Origin: Escherichia phage fp01
Sequence record: NC_048731.1
Direction: 5' to 3' (one strand)
Length of the DNA: 64,000 nucleotides
Below the pieces are notes generated by a model. It worked only from the letters and a program-made list of their open reading frames with translations, ran no database searches and was not told the origin of the DNA. Every line of letters starts with the position of its first letter. The stretch's first letter is position 1. Positions 9,401 to 52,492 of this stretch are shown piece after piece. A program made the translations under genes and the position numbers.

Positions 9401-9403
9401 AAC

Positions 9404-11204: not shown

Positions 11205-11228
11205 TCTACATATCAAATAAATAATAAA

Positions 11229-11260
11229 CCCCAGAGGGATATCCCTCTGGGGTTTTCTTT
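11229..11260. terminator. bidirectional rho-independent terminator between converging modules
   Basis: Hairpin 'CCCCAGAGGG-ATAT-CCCTCTGGGG' flanked by A-run upstream and 'TTTTCTTTTATT' downstream. Confidence 0.65.
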
Positions 11261-36559: not shown

Positions 36560-38317
36560 TTAGGTAAGGCGTTGAACTGTTACTCTTAATCTAGGTAGGA
36601 AAACCGCACTACCTAAACTTACGTGCATAACTACCCCTAACTCTACATTTCCATTTCCTAGATTTTTAACTGTATATGTGAAACTATTTCTACTTAGTGC
36701 ATTATTAGGTGTGTATCTAAATGCAGATGTAGTATGAAATGGTACTAAGTAACCTACAGGTAATGTTAAAATCTGGTGGAATATTGCATCTCCATTACTA
36801 TAGCTATAAGCCCTTCTTCCCTGCACCTGAAATACACCGTTATTCCATGTATTAGCCGGAACACCAGCACAATTAAGATTACCAGATATAACTTCAGTAG
36901 TAAGAATAACGGTAGCATTACCTCCTGGAATTCCTAGTCCAATAGTAGATAGAGCCACGTATCTGTCTCCAGTTCCGGGGTAGTAAGGGGTAATATCATC
37001 CCCCATGTAAGAACTACCAACATTTCCACTAAAAAGTCTCAGAGGAACTGAAGAAGGCCCCCAAACAACACCATGTTCATTACCAATAGTATTATTACTT
37101 GAGTTTACGTACCATTGCTTACCCGCTCCGAATTTGTAAATACTAATTTGAGACTTAGCCCCTCCATAGTCTACGGGAGACCATAAACTTCCATTACTAG
37201 AGCCTACAAGTTCGCACCTTGCAGTGGTATCTCCAAAGGCTCCAGTGTACGCTGCGTTATTTCCGACGTATTCCATATCTGGCCTATAGCCTAAGTTACC
37301 AAAAGCATTCTGGTTAATAAACTTATATCCAGTATTCGGTAAACTAACCCCTTTTATAGTAAAATTAGAGGGGGAGATAAGAATATCTGAACCAGTAAAA
37401 GGATTACCAGAGATACCCATATTACCATTAGAATACCTCAGATTAAGTACATACCAAATAACCTTAGTAGGAGTTATGTTATACCAATCCTGTAATATTG
37501 TAGCATTACCAGATTGATTAGCTAAATTAGTTGTAGAACCCCTACAAACAAATCTGTTACCTCCATCGTGGTACATAGTATTTACGCTACCAGGAAGACC
37601 TTGTCTTACCCCGCCATACCCACGTATGTTAGAGCTACAAACATAGAACCAATCGTGTCCTCTGTGTGCTGATCCTAAAGGAGACATCCATCCCGGATCC
37701 CAGTAATATGGATTATTACCATCTATAGGTACTGTACTACTATTAGTAGGAAAACCCAGCTGTGCAAAAGCTTCTGCAACAGTAATACCTACTGGAGCTC
37801 CTGCACCTGGCCTAACTATACCATGATAAGTACTATGTAGGGTGGTCCCACCAGTACCATTTCTAGAGATAGATTCTTCATGCCCTATAGATGGGTTATA
37901 GTTATATGTGCCAGATGCCAGGCTATTACCAAATGCAAATCCACTAGTTTGGGAAACGCTAGCAAAAGATCTAAAAGGATCTGCTTGAGTGGCAACTATA
38001 GTTTGACCTACTTTACTCTGAGTACCATTAAGAAAAGCCCTATGAGTACCATTAATCTCAATAGCAGTTAGTATAACTCTACCTGGGTCATTGGATTTAA
38101 TATTTATTATGTCAGAGGGCATCTGACATACAAAAAACCCATTTCCAGCATTTCCTAACCCGGCCTCATAAGTACCATCAACTAGGACAAATGGCATATC
38201 ACTATGAAAAATACTATTGGCATTTGGACTATAGTGACGATTAATGTCACCCCCAGATTCAGTATTTAAAGATAGTACGGTCTTACCATCGCTATATTTT
38301 CCAGCGAAAAAACCCAT
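36560..38317 (-). CDS. receptor-binding tail protein (T5 pb5/Oad-like)
   Basis: 585 aa Gly/Asn/Ser-rich beta-type protein at the end of the late module, divergently paired with an Llp-like lipoprotein gene as in T5; 'AGGAG' RBS. Confidence 0.55.
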
Positions 38318-38402
38318 ATAATCTCCTATTATAAAAATGTATTTGCTTTCATCCCTCTATTTTGCTATAATAGATTCATAAATTAGAAATGGAGAGATAA
38401 AT

Positions 38403-38669
38403 ATGAAAAAGTTTGTGATTGCACTAGTTGCCGCAGTTATGTTATCTGGTTGTGCACCTGCTCCCAAACCATTTTGTACTGGATTTGTAAAATCTTTTGG
38501 TGGTGCGGGAGAAGAACATTACGGTCTCAAGATTCAAAAAGTTCGTATTAAGGGAGATCGCTTCCCAGTAGTACAGCTCCGTACTAAGTTTGGGTGGTGG
38601 GATCTCAGTCAGTTTGACCTTAAATATGGTGATTGTAAATTTAAACTAGAGCAATCTAACTACCTGTAA
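38403..38669 (+). CDS. llp: superinfection-exclusion lipoprotein (Llp-like)
   Basis: Signal peptide with lipobox 'LSGC'; small size; divergent from the receptor-binding protein gene. Confidence 0.6.
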   Translation: MKKFVIALVAAVMLSGCAPAPKPFCTGFVKSFGGAGEEHYGLKIQKVRIKGDRFPVVQLRTKFGWWDLSQFDLKYGDCKFKLEQSNYL

Positions 38670-38844
38670 TTAGTATAAAGCAAAAAGACATCCAAGTAAA
38701 CTAAATTTTTTATTTTTTGGATGGTATATTGGCAGAAACCACTATGCAAGAAAAGTAGAAGTCCTTCTAGGAAGTCACGAGTATGGTTGGTTATGCACAA
38801 ACTATAAAATATTCCAAATACAACATTTACGGGGCACGAAAGTT

Positions 38845-38973
38845 ATGTCAAATAAAAGAAAGAGCAGACGCGGAGAAGTGTATGATAGCTGGATAAATAG
38901 TTTTGGGTTCGGAACTATCTTATTCTTTATTTTCGTAGGTTTTTGGTTAGCAGCTATGGCGGGGTGGATTTAA
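38845..38973 (+). CDS. small membrane protein (42 aa)
   Basis: 'MSNKRKSRRGEVYDSWINSFGFGTILFFIFVGFWLAAMAGWI'; stop overlaps next start (TAATG). Confidence 0.3.
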   Translation: MSNKRKSRRGEVYDSWINSFGFGTILFFIFVGFWLAAMAGWI

Positions 38974-39077
38974 TGGGAGTAGTAATTATTGTTTTACTAA
39001 TTATTGTAATTCTAGGGCAATGTGTCTTGGATAACCACTTAGCTCGTATTGAACGTAAGCTGCGGGAATATAAATAA
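38973..39077 (+). CDS. small membrane protein (34 aa)
   Basis: 'MGVVIIVLLIIVILGQCVLDNHLARIERKLREYK'; start/stop overlaps with neighbours. Confidence 0.3.
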   Translation: MGVVIIVLLIIVILGQCVLDNHLARIERKLREYK

Positions 39078-39322
39078 TGTTTAGTATTATAATTGCTTTT
39101 ATTATCGGGATACTCGCGGGAGTTTTCGGGACGACTGCGGCAATCAACAAGCATCGTAAATATATTGCGGGAGTGACGCGGGAGATTGCGGAAAGGGAGC
39201 GGAAGTTTGACGAGAAACGTGCGGAGTTTGAGCGAGAGTGGTCGGATGGATCTCGGGCGTCGCGGAAGAGATTCCGTGAGTTCAGGCCAGAACACAGGTT
39301 TGATGACCCTTCTATGCGCTAA
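39077..39322 (+). CDS. small membrane protein with charged C-terminal tail (81 aa)
   Basis: N-terminal TM helix 'MFSIIIAFIIGILAGVFG', Arg/Glu-rich tail. Confidence 0.4.
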   Translation: MFSIIIAFIIGILAGVFGTTAAINKHRKYIAGVTREIAERERKFDEKRAEFEREWSDGSRASRKRFREFRPEHRFDDPSMR

Positions 39323-39436
39323 TTTGACTTTTGCCAAATTTCATAAGATTACACATGGAGGTGTGCCCAGTGGGTTGGGGGAGAATACTTAGTCTGCTAA
39401 CCGCCACCCCCGTTACTATTACCTTGCTAACTGTTT

Positions 39437-39471
39437 CATCCTGTAACCATTTTAATTACAGGATGAAACTA
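39437..39471. terminator. strong hairpin (13-bp arms) downstream of dmp-like gene
   Basis: 'TTTCATCCTGTAA-CCATTTTAA-TTACAGGATGAAA' perfect inverted repeat. Confidence 0.45.
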
Positions 39472-39486
39472 TGTCAACTTTAATTA

Positions 39487-40221
39487 TTACGCAACTTTTA
39501 ATTTCTCAATATATTGTTGCGGGCTGCAACTATATTCTGCGCGTTCTTCCTCGGTCATACTTTCCCAACATAATTTCAAACGATCGGCTAGGAACTGATA
39601 ATCATTATCATCCTCGAGGGATTCATCAATAAAGGTTCCGCCTATCAATGCCACGCCGATTGATAGAATATCATTAACGGCTTGCGCATCTAGCGTTTTA
39701 AATCCATATGACGCAGCCGCTGATAATACACCTTTATGATCATCAATCATTGTAAAATCAGCGTTCGGATATAGCTGTTTAAATAATTCAAAGTAATAAC
39801 TTTTGTATACTGCGTCCTTGCTGTGGTATATCTCGCTAACCTTATCAGCCTCAAAATATTTATGCAGTGTATCGCGGGAAAATACACGGATATTACTATC
39901 ACCACGCCCGCGCAATCCTTGTTTGCGCAAATAATAATAATCCGACTTGCTCATCAGCCGAGCGGTGCAAATAATGTTTAAAGTATTTGAGTCATTCATA
40001 CATTGGCGCATATATTCCACCAAAGGTAATAAGGTGTCTTGCATTATTAAATCATGTTTACACGCTTCATTTTTATACTTATTTAAATTTAAATTCCCGT
40101 CGCTATCAAAGCAAGGCGCTACACGATGGAAAGAATTAATGATAGTGCCGTCCAGATCCCAAATCATGACGCGGGAAATATGCGGGAAATTACGGGAAAT
40201 ATTCATAATAGCTTTATTCAT
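39487..40221 (-). CDS. dmp: HAD-superfamily 5'-deoxyribonucleotidase (T5 Dmp-like)
   Basis: HAD motif I 'IWDLDGTI'; 244 aa; sits downstream of the A1-like gene in the GC-richer island. Confidence 0.6.
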   Translation of the reverse strand: MNKAIMNISRNFPHISRVMIWDLDGTIINSFHRVAPCFDSDGNLNLNKYKNEACKHDLIMQDTLLPLVEYMRQCMNDSNTLNIICTARLMSKSDYYYLRKQGLRGRGDSNIRVFSRDTLHKYFEADKVSEIYHSKDAVYKSYYFELFKQLYPNADFTMIDDHKGVLSAAASYGFKTLDAQAVNDILSIGVALIGGTFIDESLEDDNDYQFLADRLKLCWESMTEEERAEYSCSPQQYIEKLKVA

Positions 40222-40300
40222 TTGTTACGTTCTCCATTAAAGGGATGTAGTTTATCCAGCACTGCCCGCTATTTATAAGCGGGCAATAATAAATCAACTA

Positions 40301-40693
40301 TCAAAGACCATAAGCCAAAGCATCGGCGATAAAACTAATATCTTCGCCGGATATATGGGAACGAATACCCGCGCAGATATACACCTTTGCGCTTGATAGC
40401 TGATCATCAAAGCAAGCCGGACAAGGCGCGACAACTGCAAACGCAAGGCCAGCTTTCACGGCGTCAATGATAATCGTTTCTTGTTTCACCGTATCAACAT
40501 AAACGCCTGCGGCCTTGATGTAACTACTTGCGCGGCCTTGCGTATAGGCGAAAGTCGTGATCTGTAGCGCCTCATTAAATTCGATTAAATCATCAACAAC
40601 GTGACCGGCCTCAACGTGATACCGCTCACCATTAGAATAAACCAGAACGATTGAGGATTGAGCGCGATCGAATGGAATATTTTGCTTTTTCAT
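40301..40693 (-). CDS. hypothetical protein with HxE...PCxxC motif
   Basis: 'YHVEAGH' and 'APCPACF'; start 'MKKQNIPF' with leader 'TTAAATTAATTGGAGTTT'. Confidence 0.5.
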   Translation of the reverse strand: MKKQNIPFDRAQSSIVLVYSNGERYHVEAGHVVDDLIEFNEALQITTFAYTQGRASSYIKAAGVYVDTVKQETIIIDAVKAGLAFAVVAPCPACFDDQLSSAKVYICAGIRSHISGEDISFIADALAYGL

Positions 40694-40759
40694 ATTTATA
40701 AACTCCAATTAATTTAATAAGGGGCATAAGCTGGAAGTATTTCCAGCTTATAAATTTAA

Positions 40760-42424
40760 TTATGCGAAAAATTTGCCGTTTTTAAAGTCAATCAAAGTGC
40801 GTTGCCCGTTGGCGTATGTAATTAAATGCGTTTGCGTCCAGCTTGACGCGCCAACGTTGTAACCCATATCCAGACTACCAGCTACGCCAGCGGTATAAAC
40901 GCCGCCATAAATGCTAGCGGTGTGAGTGTGTCCGGTGTTTAACTTGCCCAATTTCTTAAACTGCTTAGGATTGCCACGGCTGCCGTTTATGCCGTTATGA
41001 CCGTGTACACCACACTCAATGCCTGCAATTTTGAATGATTGATCAGTCGTTAGGAAAATCGCGTTAAACTCGCAACCTGCGACGCTACGCAGCGCATAAT
41101 CTAGCACGTTGAAAGTATCGTCATGATTACCGATTGCCGCGTAAATTGCAGCATTAAGGCGGTGATATAGTTCCGCATTGGCTGGGTCGTCTTTAATGTT
41201 AGCATTACGATCATCAAGCCAACGAGATAGCGCCAAATCGTGATTCGATTCAACAATGATCGTTTGACTAAAATCACGCTCCATCGATTCCAGCACGCGC
41301 CCGGTATCGATAAGATCATCAATAACCTTATCCCGTCCGGCTGCATACTGTTTCGCTAGAAATACACCGGAAGCGCGGTTATGATGATTGCGCGATGTAA
41401 AATCATGCACGTCATGGATAAACTGATATTTAGGCTTGAGAATATCAAGCAAACTATTGTCGCCAGCCCATGACGCTGCGGCGCACTCCTCATCTAATTT
41501 TTCGGCGTGAATGTCACCATACTGTAAGCCTAAAACATGCCCCGATGTTTCATAGCATCCGGCGGGAGTAGCGCAAACATTCAGATCATAAAACACCCCG
41601 CTTTCATCCATTGTTTCAAGCTGGCGAACAAAAAATTCACCGTCCTCATCGAACTCGACAATCAGCGCACCAAAGTTATGAAGTGCTTCCGCTTTCTGTC
41701 CTGCTTTCTGCTGAATGTAGTTTTTGAGTGTTGCCGTTCCGGTTGAATACATGCGGCGCACCACTTCACCTTTTAAAGCTGGGACGCTTTCGGCGGTGAT
41801 TTTAGCGTGACCAATTGCCAGACCCTCGATATTTAAAGCCGTTGCAGTTTCTGCAAATCCAGAAAGCGGATAATCTGCGGTTGGCAAAACATTAATTTCA
41901 GCCATGAAAGCAAAACGGCGGTTATTTAAAAACACGTTTTTGCTGCAAATATACTTATCAAAAGCGGAATCATATTTGATTCCGTCAGCACCTTCCCCAT
42001 TTTGGAATCCGTTTTTATTATAAATATACTTAGAAACAAGCAAATCAGCGCCGATAAATTTGGCATATTGTTCAAGCGAGGACAAAAAGTTTTTATGCGG
42101 GAAAGTATTATTCTGAATCGATGTAATAATAAAGCGTTTGCCTTGTTTTACTTCCCACTGTTCCACGGTACTAGAAACAATTCCAGCCGCTTCGGGGCGC
42201 TCATCGTTTTTAATGGCTTTTACCGCTTTCGCCGCTTTCGGTTTAGCTGGTTTATTTGCTTCCAGCCAGTCGCAGATAGCGGTTGAATGTTTTGCAGTAT
42301 CGTAAACCGCTTTTGATATATCGTCGCAGACCTCCAATTTAGTAGCGCGCAGACGTTTACCATAGAAATTAAAGTCAGCGGCTAGTTTCAGGATAGCGGT
42401 TTGTTTTTCTGCGGAAAAAATCAT
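40760..42424 (-). CDS. A1: pre-early A1-like protein with metallophosphatase (Mre11-like) motifs
   Basis: ~554 aa from 'MIFSAEK'; 'GDIHAE', 'ESNHD', 'GHNGINGSRG', 'TGHTHTA' phosphoesterase motifs; size and position match T5 A1 as recalled. Confidence 0.65.
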   Translation of the reverse strand: MIFSAEKQTAILKLAADFNFYGKRLRATKLEVCDDISKAVYDTAKHSTAICDWLEANKPAKPKAAKAVKAIKNDERPEAAGIVSSTVEQWEVKQGKRFIITSIQNNTFPHKNFLSSLEQYAKFIGADLLVSKYIYNKNGFQNGEGADGIKYDSAFDKYICSKNVFLNNRRFAFMAEINVLPTADYPLSGFAETATALNIEGLAIGHAKITAESVPALKGEVVRRMYSTGTATLKNYIQQKAGQKAEALHNFGALIVEFDEDGEFFVRQLETMDESGVFYDLNVCATPAGCYETSGHVLGLQYGDIHAEKLDEECAAASWAGDNSLLDILKPKYQFIHDVHDFTSRNHHNRASGVFLAKQYAAGRDKVIDDLIDTGRVLESMERDFSQTIIVESNHDLALSRWLDDRNANIKDDPANAELYHRLNAAIYAAIGNHDDTFNVLDYALRSVAGCEFNAIFLTTDQSFKIAGIECGVHGHNGINGSRGNPKQFKKLGKLNTGHTHTASIYGGVYTAGVAGSLDMGYNVGASSWTQTHLITYANGQRTLIDFKNGKFFA

Positions 42425-42518
42425 AGTAATAAACTCCATTAAAGGGATAAAAAACGTTTGTTATTGGCAATATTGCCAGATATAACGCCTTGAATAATAG
42501 GCGTTATAATTTGCAACA

Positions 42519-42716
42519 TTAATTTAAAGGCATAAGGCTAGAACTAACACCACAAACAACGGCGGCAATAAAACAAATCAGACCTAAACGCTTCGCTAAC
42601 TTAGATTTGCGTTTAAAATAATACGAATCTAAGTCATTTTGAAAATATGCGAACAATAACGAGGCCGCCATAATAAATAGTCCTAGAATCAGCGATTCAG
42701 TAGGGTAAAAGATCAT
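42519..42716 (-). CDS. small two-TM membrane protein (65 aa)
   Basis: 'MIFYPTESLILGLFIMAASLLFAYF...LICFIAAVVCGV'; leader 'CCCTTTAACTGGAG'. Confidence 0.4.
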   Translation of the reverse strand: MIFYPTESLILGLFIMAASLLFAYFQNDLDSYYFKRKSKLAKRLGLICFIAAVVCGVSSSLMPLN

Positions 42717-42745
42717 TTTAATAACTCCAGTTAAAGGGAAATTAT

Positions 42746-42765
42746 AGTGGGGAATAATCCCCACT
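42746..42765. promoter_or_regulatory. perfect inverted repeat between A2-like and small membrane genes
   Basis: 'AGTGGGGA-ATAA-TCCCCACT'. Confidence 0.35.
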
Positions 42766-42773
42766 AGTTAAAT

Positions 42774-43181
42774 TTATTCACCTGCGGCCTGTTTTACTTC
42801 ATCGGCAACGCCTAACAACTGCGCCACGGCGTCCAGCGTTTCCAGTTTCGCGCTTTCAAGGCTTGCCAGATCATCGGCGTCTTTGATAATGCCGGAATCA
42901 ATAGCGTGTTTTGCAATTACTCGCACATAATGAGCCTTGCGGATTGAACTGCCGCCGCCAACTTTGCGCGGCTTATCGCTTTTTTGATAGGCTTTCGCGC
43001 TGGTCAATTTTGAGCGAACGGATACGGGAGAAGTCGCGCCCACTGCCTTTGCAATCTCTTTCAGGCCGTCGCTATTTGCAAATTCTAAACCGTTTTCGTT
43101 GATTAACTGCTGATACAGGGTAACAGCTTTTTGGGTGTTGTCTTCATTCCAAGTGAATTTTGCGGTTTTTGCGTTAGTCAT
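42774..43181 (-). CDS. hypothetical pre-early protein (A2-sized, possibly DNA-binding)
   Basis: 135 aa, Lys/Ala-rich; upstream of the A1-like gene in the same operon; leader 'TTAAATTAATTGGAGTTT'. Identity with T5 A2 is a guess from order and size. Confidence 0.3.
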   Translation of the reverse strand: MTNAKTAKFTWNEDNTQKAVTLYQQLINENGLEFANSDGLKEIAKAVGATSPVSVRSKLTSAKAYQKSDKPRKVGGGSSIRKAHYVRVIAKHAIDSGIIKDADDLASLESAKLETLDAVAQLLGVADEVKQAAGE

Positions 43182-43279
43182 GGTAAAAACTCCAATTAAT
43201 TTAATTTAAGGGATTAGATTAACTAATGTTAATCGTTATAACCCTCCTTATTCTAGGAGGGTATAAAGTTAACACTAAT

Positions 43280-43531
43280 TTATAATACAGCTTCCCATTT
43301 TTCGTTGCGTTGAACAACCTTTACAACATCGCCTGATTTAACGCGAACGTTATAAACGGTTTTGCCGTTGTTACTGCGTTCTGTTTCAGCGTATACCGCG
43401 TCGATTGTATCGAACGGCATAAGCGCCGCGCCTTTAATACGTTCGGCCTTTCCGGTTAATTCATCCGTTTTAGTAACGAAAGGAATAAAAACGGATTGAC
43501 CAATTTTAGGCGTGGTAATAACGTTTTGCAT
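43280..43531 (-). CDS. hypothetical protein (83 aa)
   Basis: ORF with 'GGAG' RBS. Confidence 0.45.
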   Translation of the reverse strand: MQNVITTPKIGQSVFIPFVTKTDELTGKAERIKGAALMPFDTIDAVYAETERSNNGKTVYNVRVKSGDVVKVVQRNEKWEAVL

Positions 43532-43762
43532 AATATAGACTCCAGTTTATTCAGTGGATTGTTCCGCATTACCTGCTAGAAAATAACAGGTAATAAGAAA
43601 AAATCCGCTCGCCATTATAAAATCAAATTAAAGAACTCCACGCGGGCCGCTATATCCCAGTTAGGGGGCGAGACACATTATGGTAAGTGCCGACCGTCAA
43701 ATTGTATCAAGTTATCGCTCTTTTCGAACTGGGTATATCTTAAAAGCCCATCGGCTAGGTTG

Positions 43763-43963
43763 TCAAACTATTTTTTGCAGTTTTTTATGATTTTCCTTCA
43801 GGTCAATCATAATATTACGCCAGATCATTTCTAAACCTTGCTGGCGCCCTTTCTTGTACTGCGTGAAGCGGTATTTTACCGATCTTTGCGCTACTGTCAA
43901 TAATTTTTTAGTTTCGCTATCCAGTGCCTTGCTAGGTTTACCAGTGATCAATAGAGTTTGCAT
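43763..43963 (-). CDS. hypothetical basic protein (66 aa)
   Basis: ORF; coupled to an upstream 52-aa ORF by TAATG overlap. Confidence 0.35.
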   Translation of the reverse strand: MQTLLITGKPSKALDSETKKLLTVAQRSVKYRFTQYKKGRQQGLEMIWRNIMIDLKENHKKLQKIV

Positions 43964-44121
43964 TATTTGAGATCCTCCAAAGCGTATAAACCTTTGCCAT
44001 CATTGCAGATTATTACTGCTTCTGAATAGGTGGCATGATATTCGTTTGCCGCTTTTACCCATTGCTCGATCTTTTCGATCGTGTCGTGGGTAGCTGGATG
44101 ATCGTTATATATTGTTTGCAT
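43963..44121 (-). CDS. hypothetical protein (52 aa)
   Basis: ORF 'MQTIYNDHPATHDTIEKIEQWVKAANEYH...' translationally coupled to the next gene. Confidence 0.25.
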   Translation of the reverse strand: MQTIYNDHPATHDTIEKIEQWVKAANEYHATYSEAVIICNDGKGLYALEDLK

Positions 44122-44583
44122 ATCGTCGATTCCTTATAATGAATAAGTTTACCGCCGATAGGCTTTTAAGATATACCCAATTTTTAAAGAGCGCGGCGGT
44201 AAACTCCCCGCCGTGTAGTTCGTCATTGCCGCCCTACGAGATAAATAATAACAAACAACGAAAAAGGCGCAACCTTATATTTGTAAAGAAATGTAAAGAC
44301 AAAATCCACCGGACACCGTGCGGCGATCTGGGCGCGACGGCCTAAAATTAAAAGAAACGGGCGCGCGAATACCACAAAACACAGCAGATAAGCAAGTAAT
44401 TTTTTCATTTATATTTGCTTTGCCCTACTTGACAAAATCTAAAAAGCTCGTGGCGACGATAAACGACGTGGCCCCTTATGATTGGATGGCTAAAAACTTT
44501 ACTGCGTTCTGGGGCGTTTCAGGCCGCTTATTTTCGACTTAACAAATCATTAACAAACGCAAAATTGAAAAATAGTTGGAAAA

Positions 44584-44609
44584 GGTCTTGACTTTTAAAA
44601 ATCAAGACC
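44584..44609 (-). terminator. hairpin downstream of HNH gene
   Basis: 'GGTCTTGA-(10 nt)-TCAAGACC'. Confidence 0.4.
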
Positions 44610-44633
44610 AAATGACTTAATTTATTAAATTAA

Positions 44634-45152
44634 TTAATTGACAATTCCAAATTCAGCTTTTTTAGTTTCAAGCCATAATAATAACTCTTGTAAATCATAA
44701 CCTGACTTACTAACACGCTTGTTAGTAATAGGATTCTTAATTTGAGCAGTCAAATAGTCACGCCCGTAACTATCACGGGGGCGAACTTTATTAACGTAAA
44801 TGTTTTTAGGGATACCATTAGCACGCTTACAGTTTTCATACTCACTAGGAGTACGATTATAATTATTCTGCGAACTATCAACCGCGCGAAGATTCCAGAT
44901 GTTATTATTACGAGTGTTACGATCGATATGATCAATCATTAGCTCGCTATCTATACCGCCATTCATTATACAAAAGATAATTCTATGTACTTTTAACTGT
45001 CCCATGCCTAATAGTTCAACTTGCCAATAATTACCATTTAAACCACCTGCGACGGCGTGATCTTCCCGCCAACGTAAAAATGATAACGCTGTTTCATCAT
45101 AATAAAAGTAACTATTAAAAAGATCATAATCTATATCTTTATATTTACCCAT
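44634..45152 (-). CDS. HNH homing endonuclease
   Basis: 'IDHIDRNTRNNNIWNLRAV' HNH motif; gene is markedly AT-richer than its GC-richer surroundings. Confidence 0.65.
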   Translation of the reverse strand: MGKYKDIDYDLFNSYFYYDETALSFLRWREDHAVAGGLNGNYWQVELLGMGQLKVHRIIFCIMNGGIDSELMIDHIDRNTRNNNIWNLRAVDSSQNNYNRTPSEYENCKRANGIPKNIYVNKVRPRDSYGRDYLTAQIKNPITNKRVSKSGYDLQELLLWLETKKAEFGIVN

Positions 45153-45717
45153 TGTTATAGTTTCCTTATGTTATTAATTTAATCTCTATTATATTATATC
45201 AAAACAATTAGCAGACTAGCTAATGAGTTTTTCAGGTTTAATTAGCAGACTCATAATCACTCTAAAAACCTATTAGCCAACTAACTATATTTTATTATAT
45301 AATAACTGTATAAATTAGTTAGTGAGAACCACTATCATTTAAGTTACCCACAGCCTTATACATTTTGTAAAATAATTTGACACAATAGGCGGCGATATGA
45401 GGGCTTTTACACAGACTTATCCACAGGTTATTCCACTGTATAAATATACAGGGTAAAAAGGTAGTGTTAACAACTGCAATCAATTTTAAGCGGCCTAAAA
45501 CGCTTTCTAACGAGCTAAACGCTGCGGGGTAGTATTAAAGTAAAGCCTTCACCCGTCGGCCTGGTGGCTTCGCCGTGTCTTGCTCTTTACTACACCGCTG
45601 CGCGGTTAGCATAAAACTAGGTGTTAGGCAAGGAAAATAAAAAAGTAAAATAATCTTTGCCTATGCTAGAAAATTACCCTTATCATTCACTCACCGATTA
45701 ACGAGGGAGGCCAACAA

Positions 45718-46704
45718 ATGCGGCTATATAAACCAGATAACGCAACCGTCTTAAAAGGTGCGCTGCGTAACCTGCTGGACGGTAGCAGAACAACCAGCAT
45801 TAAACATTTTGTTTTCAATATTGAAACTATTCATCAAAACTTTTTTGATGATTATGATGCTTACAATATGAATAGTTTTCTACCGTTATATAAGCAAGGG
45901 GCAACGCTTGTTTTATATAATCAGGATTATCAATTACTTACTAGTAGGGGGCCGGATACTGATTTCATAGTCGTAAAAGGCAACACAGTAAAAGCCTATG
46001 ATACTGGGGCGGGCTTAGAAGTTTTTTCAATAGAAAACTATGAAGCCAATGATAATGATCTTTATGACGTAGAAAATTTTCTTGATTCATTTTGGCGTTA
46101 TTTATCAGTTGGCTGGAATCGGTCGGATTCTGATGGGTATCGTTTTGCGGCTATAATGGCCTTTGATGATAACGGTAATTTTTTGCTACCGTCGGAGTTA
46201 TATAATCGGGTATATGAAGGCGATATTGTTGACGCCGGATTTTCTTTCGAAAGGGAAGAAAGTATTGACAGTATAGAAAAACATGCTGTAAATTCTAACA
46301 CTAAAAGCGTTCACACTCAAACTACTGAAAACAAAGGAAAAAATGCCATGACCAAGATCGCTAACATCGTTGCCGCCAATAAGTCTGCCGTTGTAAACGC
46401 TGCAAAACTGGAAGCGGGTAAAATTGCACTGACTCAAATTACGAAAGTAGCGGCTAAAAAAGCACCGTTCATGATCAAAGGCTATATTGATACGCCGATT
46501 GGTCGTGTAGTGATCGCTAACCTGCTGAGTGTAGCGGTTGACCAGTACGCCCCGAGTAACCAGAAAGCGAAAGCGGTAGCAGGGGCGGCTATGGAAGCGG
46601 CGATGTTGGAAATGGTGCAAAGTTTTAACATCGCTGAGATGATTGATGAAATGGTAAAAGGTATCGATATTTCTACTTTCACCACTAACACCGAAAGCGA
46701 GTAA
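45718..46704 (+). CDS. hypothetical protein, acidic N-terminal half and Ala/Lys-rich C-terminal half
   Basis: 328 aa; RBS 'GAGGGAGG'; first gene of a tightly packed plus-strand operon. Confidence 0.6.
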   Translation: MRLYKPDNATVLKGALRNLLDGSRTTSIKHFVFNIETIHQNFFDDYDAYNMNSFLPLYKQGATLVLYNQDYQLLTSRGPDTDFIVVKGNTVKAYDTGAGLEVFSIENYEANDNDLYDVENFLDSFWRYLSVGWNRSDSDGYRFAAIMAFDDNGNFLLPSELYNRVYEGDIVDAGFSFEREESIDSIEKHAVNSNTKSVHTQTTENKGKNAMTKIANIVAANKSAVVNAAKLEAGKIALTQITKVAAKKAPFMIKGYIDTPIGRVVIANLLSVAVDQYAPSNQKAKAVAGAAMEAAMLEMVQSFNIAEMIDEMVKGIDISTFTTNTESE

Positions 46705-46768
46705 TAATAACTAGCGGGGTAACAATCCCCGCTTTACTATTCCCTTGTTAATTAATAGGAGGCTAATT

Positions 46769-47086
46769 ATGCAGCTTAACAAAAAAATGCTAGAACAATT
46801 GCGGGGTAGAATCCAGCGCGATGACTACCCTCACATTAATTATTCTTCGGAAGTAGTAGACACTGCCGATTCATGGAAAAAAGCAGGTTACCCCTATGTA
46901 TGGCAACATGCAGAAAGCGCAAACGGATTCCATGCCTTTCGTGATTTAGGTCATGGAAAACTTTGCGTTTTTAAAGGTGAGTTATTAATAGGAGTATCAG
47001 AATCGGAAGTAATCACGGATGAGGTTGTATTCTTAGACAATGACCAATATGAAACAGGCAATCAGTTTTATTTTCCCGCTAATTAA
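46769..47086 (+). CDS. hypothetical protein (105 aa)
   Basis: Start 'MQLNKKM' preceded by 'TTAATTAATAGGAGGCTAATT'. Confidence 0.55.
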   Translation: MQLNKKMLEQLRGRIQRDDYPHINYSSEVVDTADSWKKAGYPYVWQHAESANGFHAFRDLGHGKLCVFKGELLIGVSESEVITDEVVFLDNDQYETGNQFYFPAN

Positions 47087-47100
47087 TAGGAGGCTAATTA

Positions 47101-47595
47101 ATGGCTGAAGAAAAATATGGCTTCTCACTGGGAGAAGTGAGCACGGCAAAACATGATATGATCATTTTAGTCGATTGTCATACTGGCTATTGCGGGGAAG
47201 GGAATACCGAGGAATATTTTGTTCCTGCTGGTACGGATCTAGACGCTTTCGCTCAGGAAATGGCTATTGATAATGCTTCTCGTTTTGGTAGCGATGGCTA
47301 TGAAGACGAGGAAACTGGCGAATGGTATGAAAATGAAAACGTATATGCGAGCCTTTATCATTATCAATTAAGTAAATCCGGCACATATGTAAACGGCGGC
47401 GATCCTATTAATTCCGTCATGAAATTAATTATTAAACACGGTGGCGTCGAGATAATTGATAACAAAGCGGTAATATATGCAAACCGATTAAAACAGCTTG
47501 TTTATATCCCTGATAGTACCCGATGGGATGAATACGCCGTTTTGCATGACGAATTGAAACGATGTTTCAATGTTGAAGCCTTACAAGTAGTCTAA
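47101..47595 (+). CDS. hypothetical acidic protein (164 aa)
   Basis: Preceded by the same 'TTAATTAATAGGAGGCTAATTA' cassette; Asp/Glu/Tyr-rich. Confidence 0.6.
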   Translation: MAEEKYGFSLGEVSTAKHDMIILVDCHTGYCGEGNTEEYFVPAGTDLDAFAQEMAIDNASRFGSDGYEDEETGEWYENENVYASLYHYQLSKSGTYVNGGDPINSVMKLIIKHGGVEIIDNKAVIYANRLKQLVYIPDSTRWDEYAVLHDELKRCFNVEALQVV

Positions 47596-47701
47596 TGTAA
47601 AGTTTTGTAAAGGTCGCCTTTTATGGTGGCCTTTTTTGCTATAATGCCTTTACACCGTTTGAGGACGGTTGAAAATTTTCCCAAAAATTTGGAGGCTTAA
47701 A

Positions 47702-47932
47702 ATGGTTGCTTATTCTTCTTCTGACGCTCTTTTCACTGGGAAAGGCTGGGTATCTAATCGCTGGATTATTCAAGAAATGGTGCAAGAATACGGCATTGCT
47801 AAAACTTACACTACCATTCAGGCGCTTTATGATAATGATCAAATCGATCAGCAAACGGCGGGCTTTTTGCTGGATACCCTGAAAGCGGAACACTGTACCA
47901 AAAAACAAGCGGCAAAAATTGTTTTAATGTAA
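47702..47932 (+). CDS. hypothetical protein (76 aa)
   Basis: ATG at 47702 with 'GGAGG' RBS; preceded by a 'TATAAT' element at 47639-47644. Confidence 0.45.
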   Translation: MVAYSSSDALFTGKGWVSNRWIIQEMVQEYGIAKTYTTIQALYDNDQIDQQTAGFLLDTLKAEHCTKKQAAKIVLM

Positions 47933-47981
47933 TTAATAACGGGGCGTTACTTTCGCCCCACTAACTAGGGGAGTAGTACAA

Positions 47982-48164
47982 ATGGTTATTTTTCGAGCTG
48001 TTCTAGCAGGTATCTTGGGCGCTATTTTGACCCTTTTCGCCACCGCGTATGGTATTCAGGATTCCTATTGCGGTTTGGTAAATACAAAACCAATGGTTAC
48101 TATTGGCGCTGGCATTGCTGTATTTTCTTATCTGCTAGGCTGCATGACTAGTAAAGGAGAATAA
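47982..48164 (+). CDS. small membrane protein (60 aa, two TM)
   Basis: Hydrophobic 'VIFRAVLAGILGAILTLFATAYG' and 'TIGAGIAVFSYLLGC'. Confidence 0.45.
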   Translation: MVIFRAVLAGILGAILTLFATAYGIQDSYCGLVNTKPMVTIGAGIAVFSYLLGCMTSKGE

Positions 48165-48166
48165 AA

Positions 48167-48379
48167 ATGATCCGCAACGTTTCTCTTGCACGTTCGAAAG
48201 GCTTTAAGCTGGTGGATGCTAACACGTTCGAGCGTCTTGATTGTAAAATCGAATATGTAGCACGTAACAAAAATGCCTTTCGTGTTACCGAGAAAAAATT
48301 TGACAAGCGCGGCAACGTGATCGCTGAAACGGTTAAACACTTTGCCACCTTTTACGCTGCGTTTCGTGGGGTGTTATAA
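48167..48379 (+). CDS. hypothetical basic protein (70 aa)
   Basis: 'AAGGAG' RBS; coupled to neighbours. Confidence 0.45.
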   Translation: MIRNVSLARSKGFKLVDANTFERLDCKIEYVARNKNAFRVTEKKFDKRGNVIAETVKHFATFYAAFRGVL

Positions 48380-48380
48380 A

Positions 48381-48725
48381 ATGGTTATTTATGAAGGCAA
48401 TCGTTTTGTTGCTAATTGCCGCCCGGCATTGTTAGCAAACTATTTAAATCAGCTTTCGCCAGCTTATAAGGGCGTTATTAATATTTATGAGGGCAAGGCA
48501 CATTATAAAATTAATGCGGTCGTTGCCCGTGAACTAGCATTTCAATTTTTGACCTTTGCATCTTGTGACGTTCAAGTTATGGGTGAAGCATTAATTGCGG
48601 AAAATGAAGAGGATTTTATTAATATTTTCCGCAAGGTATGCACCGAGCGCCTGATAATGAAAGGCGCGTATATTCAATCCACTGCGGATAGTATTGAAAC
48701 AGCGTTTCGAAAGGTGGCACAATGA
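48381..48725 (+). CDS. hypothetical protein (114 aa)
   Basis: ATG at 48381 directly after upstream stop. Confidence 0.5.
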   Translation: MVIYEGNRFVANCRPALLANYLNQLSPAYKGVINIYEGKAHYKINAVVARELAFQFLTFASCDVQVMGEALIAENEEDFINIFRKVCTERLIMKGAYIQSTADSIETAFRKVAQ

Positions 48726-48880
48726 AAAAGTTTTTAATAGCTGGCATGTTTCCTTTGTTGCCTTATGTAATTTGCTGGGCTTTATATGCTCATGGTGCTA
48801 GTGTTCCCGGTGTGGCTGCATTTGGTGTATCAGCGGGCTTTCTAGCCGGACTACTAGCAAGCGTATATTTACGCAAGTAA
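48722..48880 (+). CDS. small membrane protein (52 aa)
   Basis: 'MKKFLIAGMFPLLPYVICWALYAHGASVPGVAAFGVSAGFLAGLLASVYLRK'; ATGA overlap with previous gene. Confidence 0.4.
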   Translation: MKKFLIAGMFPLLPYVICWALYAHGASVPGVAAFGVSAGFLAGLLASVYLRK

Positions 48881-48899
48881 TTAACAACGGAGCGTTATT

Positions 48900-49094
48900 A
48901 TGAGCAATAAAATTATTGTAACCAAAACCAGCACAACGGTTGATGTTTTTTACGTGCCCGATACGCCGGAAAACCGACAAGCGGTCGAGCGTGGGGAATA
49001 TGATAAAGTGATTTATGATCACGATGGTTATTATCAGTATTTGGTGGATTCATATGGGGAGGAGGAAAAGATCACGCACCGACTACCGGACTAA
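48900..49094 (+). CDS. hypothetical acidic protein (64 aa)
   Basis: Last ORF before the repeat landscape. Confidence 0.45.
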   Translation: MSNKIIVTKTSTTVDVFYVPDTPENRQAVERGEYDKVIYDHDGYYQYLVDSYGEEEKITHRLPD

Positions 49095-49133
49095 TAATCA
49101 CGGGGCGCAACTATCAGGAAGTGCCCCCAATTC

Positions 49134-49158
49134 TCAAATGAGAATGATTCTCATTTGA
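49134..49158. repeat. perfect 25-nt palindrome
   Basis: 'TCAAATGAGAAT-G-ATTCTCATTTGA'; motif 'AAATGAGAATGATTCT' recurs at ~49650 and ~49700. Confidence 0.85.
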
Positions 49159-49360
49159 CCGCGCCCGCGATGGTTAGCCTGCTAATGGTTAGGGTGTTAC
49201 GTGTCGCCTTGTGTGATCGTTAGCGAGCTAACTAATTTTCAAGCCTCCTCCAATTTTGCCCTTGTTTTAGTATCCCCACCAAAATTAAACGCGTTAGAAT
49301 GCGTTTGAGGGCGTTTTAGCGGTATATTAGAATTATTCACTGCGTAGGAATACTGTATAT

Positions 49361-49460
49361 TTATCCAGTAGGATAAGCTGTGGATAAGTCTGTTGATAAC
49401 GCTTCAAAACGGCTAGGATTTTGTCAAGTCAAATCGTGCTGTTGATAAGTCTGGGGATAA
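49361..49460. promoter_or_regulatory. cluster of DnaA-box-like 9-mers
   Basis: 'TGTGGATAA' (perfect complement of TTATCCACA) plus 'TGTTGATAA' x2, 'TGGGGATAA', 'TTATCCAGT' within ~100 bp. Confidence 0.6.
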
Positions 49461-49485
49461 CTTAAATAATAGTGTTTCTCACTTC

Positions 49486-49740
49486 CGTTCTTAAATGCGA
49501 ATCATTATCATTTGCATTCCACTTCCTGAATAAGAATCATTCCACTATCTAAACGATAATCATTCCACTTCCTGAATAATAATCATTCCACTATCTAAAT
49601 AAGAATCATTCCACTATCTAAACGATAATCATTCCACTTTTTAAATGAGATTGATTCTCATTCCACTTTCTAAATGCGAATTATTATCATTCGCATTCCG
49701 CTTTTTAAATGAGAATGATTCTTATTATCATTCGTATTTA
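49486..49740. repeat. tandem iteron-like ~23-bp repeats
   Basis: About 8 head-to-tail units of 'CATTCCACT(A/T)(T/C)CT(A/G)AA(T/C)(A/G)A(T/G)AAT' with variants. Confidence 0.8.
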
Positions 49741-49762
49741 GCGCAGAGCAATTGCTCTGCGC
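49741..49762. repeat. perfect 22-nt palindrome followed by T-run
   Basis: 'GCGCAGAGCA-ATT-GCTCTGCGC' then 'TTTTGTG'; could act as a terminator or protein site. Confidence 0.8.
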
Positions 49763-49765
49763 TTT

Positions 49766-50369
49766 TGTGCAAAACCGACATTGCTCCACGGGTGTTACGT
49801 GCGGGCGTATGTGCAAATCCGACAGGATTTTTGGTAGTGTGCAAATCCGACCCGAAAAATTTTTATAGTGTGCGAATCCGACAATGAATTTTTCCAAAAA
49901 CTCCAGCAATCCGATGCTGCGCATCAATCCTGTGGAATTAACTAGAATATGTGCAAATCCGACATGAGTTTATTTGTGCGAATCCGACAAGATTTTTGTG
50001 ACTTCGATTGGAGGGTGTGTGATTGTGTGGGTTTGGGGAGAAGTTGAGAGAGCGAGGGAAAATTAGGGGAGAAGCTAGAGAGGCGCATGTTTGGTGCGGG
50101 GGCACCCGATTTGCGGGGATTTTGGGGAAGAGTTGAGAAGATTTGGGTTAATTTGAGATTAGTGGAGATAAAGTAAAATTTTATTAGCTAAATGGGGCAA
50201 AATAGCTTGACAAGTGAAAATTCTTGTGGCTCTAAAAACTCAGGCAATCATGGGCCTTCGGCCCGAAATAATGCTGCCATTTTCAAGAGATTATGTGTCC
50301 ATGAAAACTTAGGCAATTGTGCAAATCCGACCATAAATTTCTAGAAACACAATGTGCAAATCCGACAGT
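49766..50369 (+). repeat. eight dispersed direct copies of a 14-nt motif
   Basis: 'GTGC(A/G)AA(A/T)CCGAC(A/C)' at ~49767, 49811, 49840, 49871, 49950, 49977, 50320, 50353, all on the same strand. Confidence 0.8.
50000..50200 (+). repeat. purine-rich G-tract region with 3 copies of 'GGGGAGAAG(T/C)TGAGAG'-like unit
   Basis: Strong G+A skew on plus strand; G-runs 'GGG','GGGG','GGGGG' spaced by short linkers. Confidence 0.7.
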
Positions 50370-50914
50370 AAAATCCAGAAATGTGTTTTCAAAAAATGTT
50401 GTCTAGAAATAACCGCCCTCCCCATAACCGCCCTGTATTAAACCGCCTAGTATATGTTCCTAGAAACTTAGGAGAACCGCCCACTAGAAGTGTGATATCT
50501 CGTGAGTATTTCGTGAGAACTCTGGAGTTTCTAGGAAAGTGTTGTGCCATCCTAGCAGATGAGCGGCAACAGGTGTATCATCTTGAATGTAAATTATGTG
50601 GTCAAAAGTTTTACTTTTATTTTAAATATAAGATCCCCCAGGGTTCTCATATAGAGCTTTGCCCCCGCCAGAAGGTCTCGTGATGTTTCTAGCAATTTAT
50701 ATTAAATTACTTATTAACTTGTCCTGTCGCTCCGTATCCTCCGCTACAAGTTAGTAATTTTAAATTACTGAACCACCACACCTTCTGTGTGGCAACTCTA
50801 AATGGTTAATTCTATTAACTCATAGAGTTATGATAACATACATTTAGCTATCTGTCAACGAGAGTTTGTATTTGAGTCTCGGTACAGGTATTGTGCACCG
50901 AGACTTGCAGGATC

Positions 50915-51799
50915 TTACAGTAACTCTTGGTATGCTTTTTGATACGCCTCAGTGTCCGTAGGTGTACCTTTTGCAATGGCTATTAATTCATCTGTAATCT
51001 GAATATTCGTATTATAACGTGAGTGGAACTCGTCAGGAATTTCTAGATACCTATTGATGAATGCTGCAGCAAGCGGTGAAGCTACACCCATTTCTAGAAC
51101 CCATCCAACATGGTTTTCAAATTTCAGATAAGGAGAATCAGATGGGATTGGTGGGGTTACATCAATTTTCTCTGGTTCTTTTTCTGGAAGCAACGGATTA
51201 TTATATAATGCTTCATCTGGAAGCACAGATTTACGCTCTTTAAATATATAAGTTTCTAGATCAGATGCTTTAGATCCTGAGTATACAGCAAAGATGCTAG
51301 CTTTACCTTGTGATGCTCTAACTGGTAGATAACTAGTAGGATAGCTTCTTAATGCATCATGGAATGGACTTCCTGAATATTTGTACGTATCCCCATAGAG
51401 ATCGTCAATATTCATTCGTTCATCTTCAAAAATGTGAAATGACTTAAATGGTGGAATGGTGAAGTATTCCATCTGTAATCCATAAACTAAGAAACGATGT
51501 GCATATGCACTGATTTTTAAGACTGTGAATGCTTTTTCACCTTCTTTATGGGCATTGCCCTTTGAAGTAACTGGGTAACGTTTACAAAACATCTCTACTA
51601 GACGTTTCTCATTAAGACTAAGGGTGGAGTACAGTCGTCCACTTAACCCTATAAGTGCATCGAACATAAATGCTAGTTTATCTTTTTCTTCTTGGGTTAG
51701 TTCAGGAAACGGAAGTACTTTAGCATTAGGAACACTATTATTCTCCTTTGCCTTTACTTTGCCAGCATTTTGTCTTAGTTTATCTTTAAAGTTATACAT
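50915..51799 (-). CDS. hypothetical early protein (294 aa)
   Basis: Long ORF, first gene of the minus-strand early block after the repeat region. Confidence 0.55.
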   Translation of the reverse strand: MYNFKDKLRQNAGKVKAKENNSVPNAKVLPFPELTQEEKDKLAFMFDALIGLSGRLYSTLSLNEKRLVEMFCKRYPVTSKGNAHKEGEKAFTVLKISAYAHRFLVYGLQMEYFTIPPFKSFHIFEDERMNIDDLYGDTYKYSGSPFHDALRSYPTSYLPVRASQGKASIFAVYSGSKASDLETYIFKERKSVLPDEALYNNPLLPEKEPEKIDVTPPIPSDSPYLKFENHVGWVLEMGVASPLAAAFINRYLEIPDEFHSRYNTNIQITDELIAIAKGTPTDTEAYQKAYQELL

Positions 51800-51877
51800 T
51801 ATTTATCTCTCATTTTTAAGGTCTGGATGACCTTCTTTTTATTTTAGAGCCTCCGTAGAGGCTCATGTATTAGAGGA

Positions 51878-52492
51878 TTAGCTACCTCTCTTATCCTCGT
51901 CGATAACAGCTCCCAACGCCTCCATAATAGCATCTTCTAAGCTTCCATGCTTACTAGGATTATTAAAATGAATAGTACAAACAGAACTCCTAGAAACTCC
52001 AGCATCCGCAGGTGCTACGCTTCGCATATCAGATTCAAAAGCTTCTTGAGTATGTTTCAGCTGTACAGAAGGGCCGTAGTCTTCACCAAACTTATATGAC
52101 TGCGTACTACTTACCACACCCCCACAAGGAACATTGTGCATATCCGACATTAATCTTTTATCGGAGTTATTCAGCATTGAGATTGTCCCTGACTGCCACG
52201 GATCTCTAATAGTCACTGGAGTACTGGGGCGATTCACCTCGGTCTTCACAAGTTTGTACCCTGCATCGATTAATGCGTTAATTAGATTATCAGCCGGGAT
52301 GCGAGCCTTGCCAAAAATCTTACGAGCATCTTCGAGCTTATCCTCAAGATCTTTACATGCTCTAAGGTCATTGTGTGCAAATGTTAGCTTCATAGATTTG
52401 AATTGTACAGTAGCAGTTAAATCTTTAAAGCTATAATCCCATGTGTTCAGTTCATGATCTGGTACTACTTGAATAGGTTGTTGTGTAAACAT
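51878..52492 (-). CDS. hypothetical early protein (204 aa)
   Basis: ORF. Confidence 0.5.
   Translation of the reverse strand: MFTQQPIQVVPDHELNTWDYSFKDLTATVQFKSMKLTFAHNDLRACKDLEDKLEDARKIFGKARIPADNLINALIDAGYKLVKTEVNRPSTPVTIRDPWQSGTISMLNNSDKRLMSDMHNVPCGGVVSSTQSYKFGEDYGPSVQLKHTQEAFESDMRSVAPADAGVSRSSVCTIHFNNPSKHGSLEDAIMEALGAVIDEDKRGS

Follow-up and report, generated by a model that had tools for sequence, protein, structure and literature searches.

Gene Order at the Junction

The window, i.e., the whole stretch of 64,000 nt from Escherichia phage fp01 (NC_048731.1) that was analyzed here, represents a Tequintavirus (T5-like) genome with approximately 92-95% identity to the phages Spc35, NR01, and HMD-P5. 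In megablast searches, the segment 38300-40300 matched 447 phage records, nearly all of them T5-like and obtained from Salmonella and Escherichia; 134 phage records covered at least 80% of this segment. Spc35 (HQ406778) was the top match, with 94.9% identity over 38300-40300, and is the closest relative in this interval among sequenced phages.

The features of the junction are listed in Table 1. The complete synteny of a T5-like junction was found: terminase, receptor-binding protein, receptor-blocking lipoprotein, small membrane-protein ORFs, and, on the opposite strand, dmp, A1, and A2. Of these, dmp comes first in the repeat and closes the leftward pre-early operon. All three deposited T5 records share the order oad/pb5 (minus strand), llp (plus strand), T5.159-T5.162 (plus strand; four small ORFs described as having a single transmembrane domain), right terminal repeat, and dmp/A1/A2 (minus strand). 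The right terminal repeat of T5 begins 41 nt past T5.162, and collinearity between the window and T5 extends across the junction. Late genes that directly meet pre-early genes are the normal right-hand junction of T5-like genomes. An earlier note, made from the sequence of this window, had the lipoprotein gene ending at 38669 and dmp beginning at 39487 on the minus strand, and had placed the boundary between unique region and repeat inside 38670-39486; the gene limits were borne out, and homology puts the left repeat boundary within that interval, at 39364/39365.

Table 1. Features at the late/pre-early junction of the window (positions in the 64,000-nt window).
Feature	Position	Strand	Basis or remark
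Receptor-binding tail protein gene (585 aa)	36560..38317	-	ORF list; last late gene, right-hand unique region
Lipoprotein gene (88 aa)	38403..38669	+	ORF list; phrog_1119
42-aa ORF	38845..38973	+	ORF list; phrog_8596; T5.159 homolog
34-aa ORF	38973..39077	+	ORF list; phrog_6369; T5.160 homolog
81-aa ORF	39077..39322	+	ORF list; phrog_6447; T5.162 homolog
Conserved 27-nt block	39339..39365	none	Ends at predicted left terminus
Predicted terminal repeat (~10.87 kb)	39364..50232	none	Homology to deposited T5-like record ends
Stem-loop	39433..39469	-	14-nt perfect arms; 17 nt downstream of dmp stop
dmp (deoxynucleoside-5'-monophosphatase)	39487..40221	-	97% identity to Spc35 dmp; phrog_415
A1	40760-42439	-	ORF list

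Receptor-Binding Protein, Lipoprotein, and Small Membrane Proteins

The last late gene matches genes of Spc35, chee24, and other phages whose annotated product is a receptor-binding protein. The adjoining, divergently oriented lipoprotein gene (dN/dS ~0.17) encodes a lipobox, LSGC, within a Pfam LPAM_1 lipid attachment site, and its product matches its PHROG family with an E value of 1.7e-26; against T5 Llp, an E value of only 0.046 was obtained. The protein is predicted to be a receptor-blocking (superinfection-exclusion) lipoprotein of the Cor/BF23 type, for which T5 Llp is a functional analog and not a homolog. The label "llp" that the earlier note had given to this gene therefore holds in the sense of an analogous receptor-blocking-type lipoprotein, and fails as a statement of homology to T5 Llp. 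In the window, receptor-binding protein and lipoprotein are both of the BF23/Spc35 (BtuB) type, whereas T5 carries the FhuA-type pair pb5/Llp; the lipoprotein of Spc35 has 100% amino-acid identity to that of the window.

Three overlapping ORFs of 42, 34, and 81 aa follow, exactly at the coordinates previously reported for them; successive ORFs overlap by one base at TAATG stop/start junctions. Each encodes one hydrophobic segment of 17 aa with a mean Kyte-Doolittle hydropathy of 2.2-3.4: a C-terminal helix in the 42-aa protein (2.23 at residues 22-38), an N-terminal helix in the 34-aa protein (3.37), and an N-terminal helix followed by a highly charged tail in the 81-aa protein. All three gave full-length matches to the PHROG families of Table 1 (E values of 3e-32, 3e-17, and 1.8e-47 in order of position), and their identities to the T5 counterparts are 97.6% (T5.159), 78% over T5.160 residues 15-32, and 87% (T5.162). 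Among unique relatives, mean dN was 0.055 against a dS of 0.53 for the 42-aa ORF (24 sequences); the corresponding values were 0.23 against 1.09 for the 34-aa ORF and 0.063 against 0.26 for the 81-aa ORF, with 23-25 unique relatives across the three ORFs. With dN/dS ratios of approximately 0.1-0.25, the three ORFs are real genes under purifying selection.

A homolog of T5.161 is missing in the window, in contrast to T5, and likewise in Spc35; 21 of 29 junction loci have this gene. The 81-aa protein has a sub-threshold match to the Pfam family LapA_dom (22 bits, cut-off 28), beyond which no Pfam match was found for the small proteins; PADLOC defense-system profiles matched neither the lipoprotein nor any of the three small proteins, and nothing on T5.159-162 was found in the literature searched. 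The small-ORF cassette differs between lineages and runs in the same direction as the lipoprotein gene. Based on position, orientation, and variable content, a guess of low confidence would be that the small proteins have accessory roles in the inner membrane and are perhaps expressed together with the lipoprotein.

Predicted Boundaries of the Terminal Repeat

The comparison with T5 repeat coordinates that had been suggested earlier could be carried through: base 1 of T5 aligns with window position 39364, and the right end of T5 aligns with 50232. By homology to the left ends of T5 and nine other records, the left boundary in the window falls at GGTG/TGCCCAGTGG (the slash marks the boundary), or, in the wider context of the T5 alignment, at ACACATGGAGGTG/TGCCCAGTGG. 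The left-end survey covered 37 IMG/VR loci recovered using the dmp protein; ten deposited left ends, those of T5, L6jm, NBEco002, and seven IMG/VR genomes, lie at this site or up to 3 nt rightward, and most of these ten records, T5 included, carry both repeats. The T5 left-end sequence TGTCCACTG corresponds to TGCCCAGTG in the window. On the right-hand side, two records of T5 and those of L6jm and HASG4 have ends that align to window position 50232; the alignment of NBEco002 reaches 50230, with 2 nt of that record left over, which corresponds to the same site. The window reads TTGTGGCTC/TAAAAAC here, corresponding to the T5 right-end sequence TGTGGCTC/TAAAAAC. From these homologies we infer that virion DNA would start at 39364/5 and end at 50232, with a predicted repeat of approximately 10.87 kb.

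The deposited ends are not uniform. The annotated length of the T5 repeat is 9,749, 10,139, or 10,219 bp, depending on the record; in BF23, a repeat of 9,743 bp was determined by PhageTerm (PMC10644984). Since the annotations disagree and the BF23 repeat has this shorter length, the right boundary is less secure than the left. The Kenya-K16 repeat corresponds to window 39384-49467, and the left end of Klebsiella phage IME260 is displaced rightward by approximately 24 nt from the T5-equivalent site. The annotated repeat of chee24 begins just past the hairpin; chee24 and other records begin 0-16 nt past the dmp stop codon, starts that appear to follow an arbitrary convention. Some deposited ends may have been placed by analogy to T5 and may therefore not be independent of each other. 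When both ends are read inward (left TGYCCAS, right GAGCCAC), an inverted likeness becomes visible that is too short to be distinguished from chance, and it was discarded; the T5 nick consensus R/GCGCRGG is absent from the interval.

A Single Repeat Copy Between Right-Unique and Left-Unique DNA

The predicted repeat is present once, and a search of the 64-kb window yielded no second copy. To its left lies right-unique DNA (terminase, receptor-binding protein, and lipoprotein genes), and to its right the sequence passes unbroken into the early region of left-unique DNA. Here, T5 9317-11992 corresponds to window 49259-51974 in a single alignment that spans the T5 repeat end at 10219, and relatives align collinearly to window 39300-64000 over the entire repeat and onward through the early genes (dNMP kinase, holin, ClpP). 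Since the lone repeat copy is bordered by both unique ends, the assembly is very probably collapsed and circularly permuted, with the two copies of a T5-like long direct terminal repeat merged and the interval between the lipoprotein gene and dmp representing the boundary between right-unique region and repeat. The earlier suggestion of a collapsed terminal repeat or a circularly closed assembly is thus supported by a lone copy with right-unique DNA to its left and left-unique DNA to its right. The accompanying reservation, that a single sequence cannot show which repeat copy is present or place the physical ends, was too cautious; the window alone shows the collapse, and homology predicts the ends.

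The one-copy arrangement matches a concatemer junction or a circular form of replicating T5; a circular form has been reported for replicating T5 (bioRxiv 10.1101/866236), and assemblers yield the single-copy arrangement for phages with direct terminal repeats (PMC5557969). The segment 39364-50232 is accordingly predicted, from homology to deposited genomes, to be present in two copies in each virion and in one copy per unit of a replicating concatemer. The join of the lipoprotein gene and dmp is expected to be contiguous in all virion molecules, since this is where the unique region meets the right-hand repeat in the interior of the genome. Reads across this join are therefore expected, and the proposal of the earlier note to count long reads spanning the junction in all molecules against a collapsed repeat is flawed; it is the combination of right-unique DNA, repeat, and left-unique DNA on one molecule that virion DNA should lack.

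There is only a very slight chance that the adjacency of lipoprotein gene and dmp results from an assembly misjoin, or that the genome is truly circular or permuted and lacks a terminal repeat: a 41-N gap at 15112-15152 identifies the record as a draft assembly, but the same adjacency is found in T5 and in the 134 well-covered records mentioned above, both T5-type terminus sequences are kept in the window, and long repeats occur in all characterized T5-like phages (PMC10644984; bioRxiv 10.1101/866236). For a collapsed repeat, the assembly would best be re-oriented to begin at approximately 39364/5 and completed by a second copy of 39364-50232; dmp, A1, A2, and the other genes of this segment would be diploid in the virion. 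Edits made in the repeat are copied to both of its ends of the genome (PMC8108384).

The Stem-Loop Downstream of dmp

The earlier note had also described a perfect hairpin with 13-nt arms at 39437-39471. The hairpin is indeed perfect; its coordinates were off by 2-4 nt, and the arms (39433-39446 and 39456-39469) measure 14 nt, separated by a loop of 9 nt, or of 3 nt if G·U pairs are allowed. Only one other perfect inverted repeat in the window is at least 14 nt long and has a short spacer. In dmp-sense RNA, the stem grows to 17 bp and is extended by a 6-bp outer helix (39426-39478). As minus-strand RNA, the terminal 123 nt fold with -43.1 kcal/mol (z -5.1), and as plus-strand RNA with -33.6 kcal/mol (z -3.0). 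A second candidate hairpin at 39377-39411 pairs in the window and is not clearly conserved in relatives; it was discarded. A permissive Rfam scan of 38300-40300 (E up to 1) found no family.

A stem of 12-21 bp lies 13-17 nt past the dmp stop codon in both sequence types found in Tequintavirus, type A (T5 and the window) and type B (chee24 and L6jm), in Epseptimavirus, and in Klebsiella phages of the genus Sugarlandvirus; in a Proteus phage of the genus Novosibvirus, a 13-bp stem lies between dmp and a terminus-type motif. The hairpin of the window differs from that of T5 at two compensated pairs. In an RNAalifold alignment of 16 unique sequences, 8 of 16 stem pairs showed compensatory double changes, and the alignment, read in dmp sense, contained 23 G·U cells spread over 7 pair positions against a single C·A cell. 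Two to five dmp-sense G·U pairs occurred in 21 of 23 unique sequences, and these 21 fold more stably in dmp sense; opposite-sense G·U pairs were absent in 22 of the 23, with a single pair in the remaining one. The hairpin thus displays the general marks of a structured RNA, i.e., compensatory changes that maintain pairing and wobble pairs that are strand-specific. Selection on RNA in dmp direction is expected to give such a strand-specific pattern, which would not be expected of a DNA cruciform or a protein-binding palindrome. Most likely, the hairpin is an RNA element in dmp (minus-strand) sense and forms a 3'-end element of the pre-early transcript.

The manner in which such an element would act is suggested by its composition and position. 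The stem is AT-rich, a U-tract is absent 3' of the stem on either strand (minus tail AGUUAGCAAGG, plus tail UAUGUCAACUUU), and a terminator scan did not call the hairpin; for these reasons, a 3'-end barrier or stabilizer is the most likely role, rather than a canonical intrinsic terminator. In such a mechanism, the leftward pre-early transcript (A1, then dmp) would end in a stable stem-loop of 17-21 bp located approximately 70 nt from the DNA end; without it, transcription during first-step transfer would continue off this end. Once run-off, weak termination, or processing had occurred, the stem-loop would shield the message from 3' exonucleases; its right-hand copy would also limit read-through antisense to the lipoprotein gene cluster. 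No mapping of T5 transcript 3' ends was found in the literature searched. Long stable operon-end stems without U-tract are known among stem-loops that stabilize mRNA 3' ends (REP-type elements and RNase III-processed 3' hairpins of phage early transcripts); the likeness to the hairpin of the window is a functional analogy, with no shared sequence family.

The leading alternative, which appears unlikely, is a bidirectional intrinsic terminator that stops both the plus-strand transcript of the lipoprotein gene and small ORFs and the minus-strand pre-early transcript. T5 record AY587007 annotates the hairpin (111683..111719) as a "putative rho-independent terminator"; the hairpin sits between convergent genes, and the perfect 14-bp stem of the window could form in plus-sense RNA as well as in minus-sense RNA, or as a DNA cruciform. 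Yet the stem, with 14-17 bp and 5 of 14 pairs GC, departs from the G+C-rich 5-12-bp stem with short loop that characterizes intrinsic terminators, and the missing T/U run and the negative terminator scan argue in the same direction. In relatives, moreover, the plus-sense stem contains C·A mismatches where the minus-sense stem has G·U pairs, and the predicted physical end falls between the small ORFs and the hairpin.

An element acting as DNA, i.e., a cruciform or protein-binding palindrome involved in end formation, repeat duplication, or ejection, is distinctly less probable. Its appeal lies in the short distance to the predicted left end, in the stem-loop at the same position in four genera, and in the unexplained duplication of the T5 repeat (PMC8108384; PMC5557969). 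A palindrome recognized by a protein should conserve its sequence, whereas here pairing is kept and stem sequence is not; the one-sided distribution of G·U pairs (23 cells vs. 1) fits RNA and not a symmetric cruciform, and the distance between stem and terminus varies among lineages. Slightly less probable again is the possibility that the region serves mainly as a minus-strand promoter, TTGACA-17-TAAAAT at 39477..39449, directed toward the repeat boundary and the receptor-binding protein gene: it matches 11 of 12 consensus positions with the -10 element in the loop, and T5 and other type-A phages keep this -10 element together with a -35 element TTGAAA, but type-B Tequintavirus, Epseptimavirus, and Klebsiella phages have lost the site while keeping the stem, and promoter-like matches in the region are no more numerous than in shuffled sequence.

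A Conserved Block Adjoining the Left Boundary

The predicted left terminus coincides with the end of a 27-nt block, TTTCATAAGATTACACATGGAGGTGTG, that occurs once in the window; a search found no second copy at the right boundary or elsewhere. Apart from the dmp-proximal piece, the block is the best-conserved intergenic stretch, with a per-column conservation of approximately 0.82 that is only moderately above the 0.57-0.74 of its flanks. It shows one mismatch in Epseptimavirus and three in a Klebsiella Sugarlandvirus, and a Proteus Novosibvirus has a variant of the block core, GGGTGTGTCC. The block lies just outside the repeat and would thus be single-copy in virions and precede each repeat in concatemers.

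A plus-strand ORF across the boundary (39331-39483; 50 aa with TTG as start codon, 42 aa with the ATG at 39355) was judged to be non-coding, because it is reduced to 22 aa in type-B relatives and shows non-conservative changes between T5 and the window, as judged by eye. This ORF has a perfect GGAGGTG Shine-Dalgarno sequence.

The block is a candidate component of the signal by which the left-end cut is positioned. More specifically, the block (ending in ACACATGGAGGTG/TG) together with the adjacent YCCASTGG could constitute the left-end cut signal for a T5-type terminase, perhaps with the dmp-distal hairpin or hairpins; this is a tentative proposal, and the odds are against it. If true, it would be the first defined cis-element for making exact 10-kb terminal repeats, in a phage group where the mechanism of repeat duplication is unknown (PMC8108384; PMC5557969).

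Comparison With Other Phages and Implications

The interval agrees with T5 (AY543070 110349-111660; AY587007 110421-111737) in gene order, repeat start, and hairpin position; unlike T5, the window contains one repeat copy and not two. Spc35 has been deposited as a linear genome of 118,351 bp with both repeats, where the right repeat is annotated from 41 nt past the 81-aa ORF, the only member of the ORF triplet that is annotated. Phages T7 and T3 likewise have fixed ends and a direct repeat that occurs once per concatemer junction, with an inverted repeat near the left boundary; for the T7 concatemer junction, which contains short direct repeats and pac sites, a hairpin-end intermediate has been proposed. 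The T5-type repeat is approximately 70 times longer and has no sequence similarity to the T7/T3 system, and the strand-specific G·U pattern of the window hairpin favors a role as RNA over a DNA hairpin. In SPO1-type phages as well, the mechanism that makes long exact terminal repeats is, to our knowledge, still unknown.

The junction, the small ORFs, and the hairpin are ordinary features that are already annotated in T5; the additions made here, the RNA-sense covariation of the "terminator" and the terminus-adjoining block, are minor refinements. Their biological value is modest, and they leave the picture of T5 genome organization unchanged. For the "putative terminator" of T5, the strand-specific covariation suggests a conserved 3'-end element of pre-early RNA, shared by four genera of the Demerecviridae; the conserved sequence adjoining the terminus provides a concrete target for studying the cutting and duplication of long repeats in T5-type phages.

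Coordinates and right end of the predicted terminal repeat

Deposited terminal-repeat annotations of near-identical sequences (phages chee24, Kenya-K16 and IME260, and record AY692264) lie 20 to >700 nt apart; the repeat coordinates of public T5-like records are no reliable standard. The source of the window is a draft short-read assembly, as marked by a run of 41 Ns at 15112–15152 (within 14996–15495); this run is an assembly gap or mask, and the minus-strand ORF in which it falls is tandemly repetitive there, with a unit of 21 nt (7 codons). The predicted right terminus reads …TTGACAAGTGAAAATTCTTGTGGCTC/TAAAAAC (within 50200–50264; the slash marks the terminus), and a GC-rich hairpin, GGGCC-TTC-GGCCC (50252–50264), follows 19 nt past it. 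Read inward, both repeat ends bear a weak likeness to NNNCCA(C/G) that is indistinguishable from chance.

Palindromes are clustered in the right-hand, non-coding portion of the terminal repeat, together with a 23-nt repeat (CATTCCACT…) that occurs there five times. Davison reportedly described an injection-stop (iss) and DnaA-box region in T5, of which this cluster is the counterpart; the AGCGCAGAGCAA palindrome is the probable match of the 7.9% major nick site. Matches to the full T5 major-nick consensus, RGCGCRGG, show no excess over chance in the window (3 vs. 2.2 expected); every copy is on the minus strand, a bias that fits the strand reported to be nicked.

Features located in the window
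Feature	Position	Strand	Remark
RGCGCRGG	8360–8367	−	consensus match
RGCGCRGG	20728–20735	−	consensus match
RGCGCRGG	62150–62157	−	consensus match
50-aa ORF	39331–39483	+	TTG start; 42 aa from internal ATG at 39355
Palindrome/23-nt-repeat cluster	49134–49158, 49515–49675, 49644–49726, 49740–49763		non-coding right part of repeat

The repeat boundary and the small-ORF cassette

A near-consensus sigma-70 site (TTGACA-17-TAAAAT, 39477–39449, minus strand; 11 of 12 positions) overlaps the hairpin downstream of the dmp stop codon, its −10 falling in the loop. The site is kept in T5 and other type-A phages (the sequence type downstream of dmp that includes the window), where the −35 reads TTGAAA, and is lost from type-B (including chee24 and L6jm), Epseptimavirus and Klebsiella phages. 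Although the ORF spanning the predicted repeat boundary overlaps GGAGGTG, a perfect Shine-Dalgarno sequence, its truncation to 22 aa in type-B relatives makes it unlikely to be a gene.

The content of the small-ORF cassette (38973–39322) differs from phage to phage, as compared with chee24, Kenya-K16, a further relative (L004) and others; a T5.161 homolog (64 aa) occurs at 21 of the 29 junction loci but is missing from the window, Spc35, L6jm, NBEco002 and NR01. An HNH (homing) endonuclease is annotated among the matched features in some records, NR01 being one example. The 175-nt gap 3′ of the lipoprotein gene contains an extended −10-like sequence, TGGTATATT (38722–38730), some 115 nt before the start of the 42-aa ORF, so that a separate promoter may serve the small ORFs.

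At the end of the 81-aa ORF, the motif TAWGCGCTAA (39313–39322) shows no variation across all Tequintavirus and Epseptimavirus junctions; it shares only the R/GCGC core with the T5 nick consensus R/GCGCRGG (PMC3517423). The C-terminus and stop codon of this ORF vary by lineage despite the invariant motif, a sequence pattern which suggests that TAWGCGCTAA is conserved at the DNA or RNA level.
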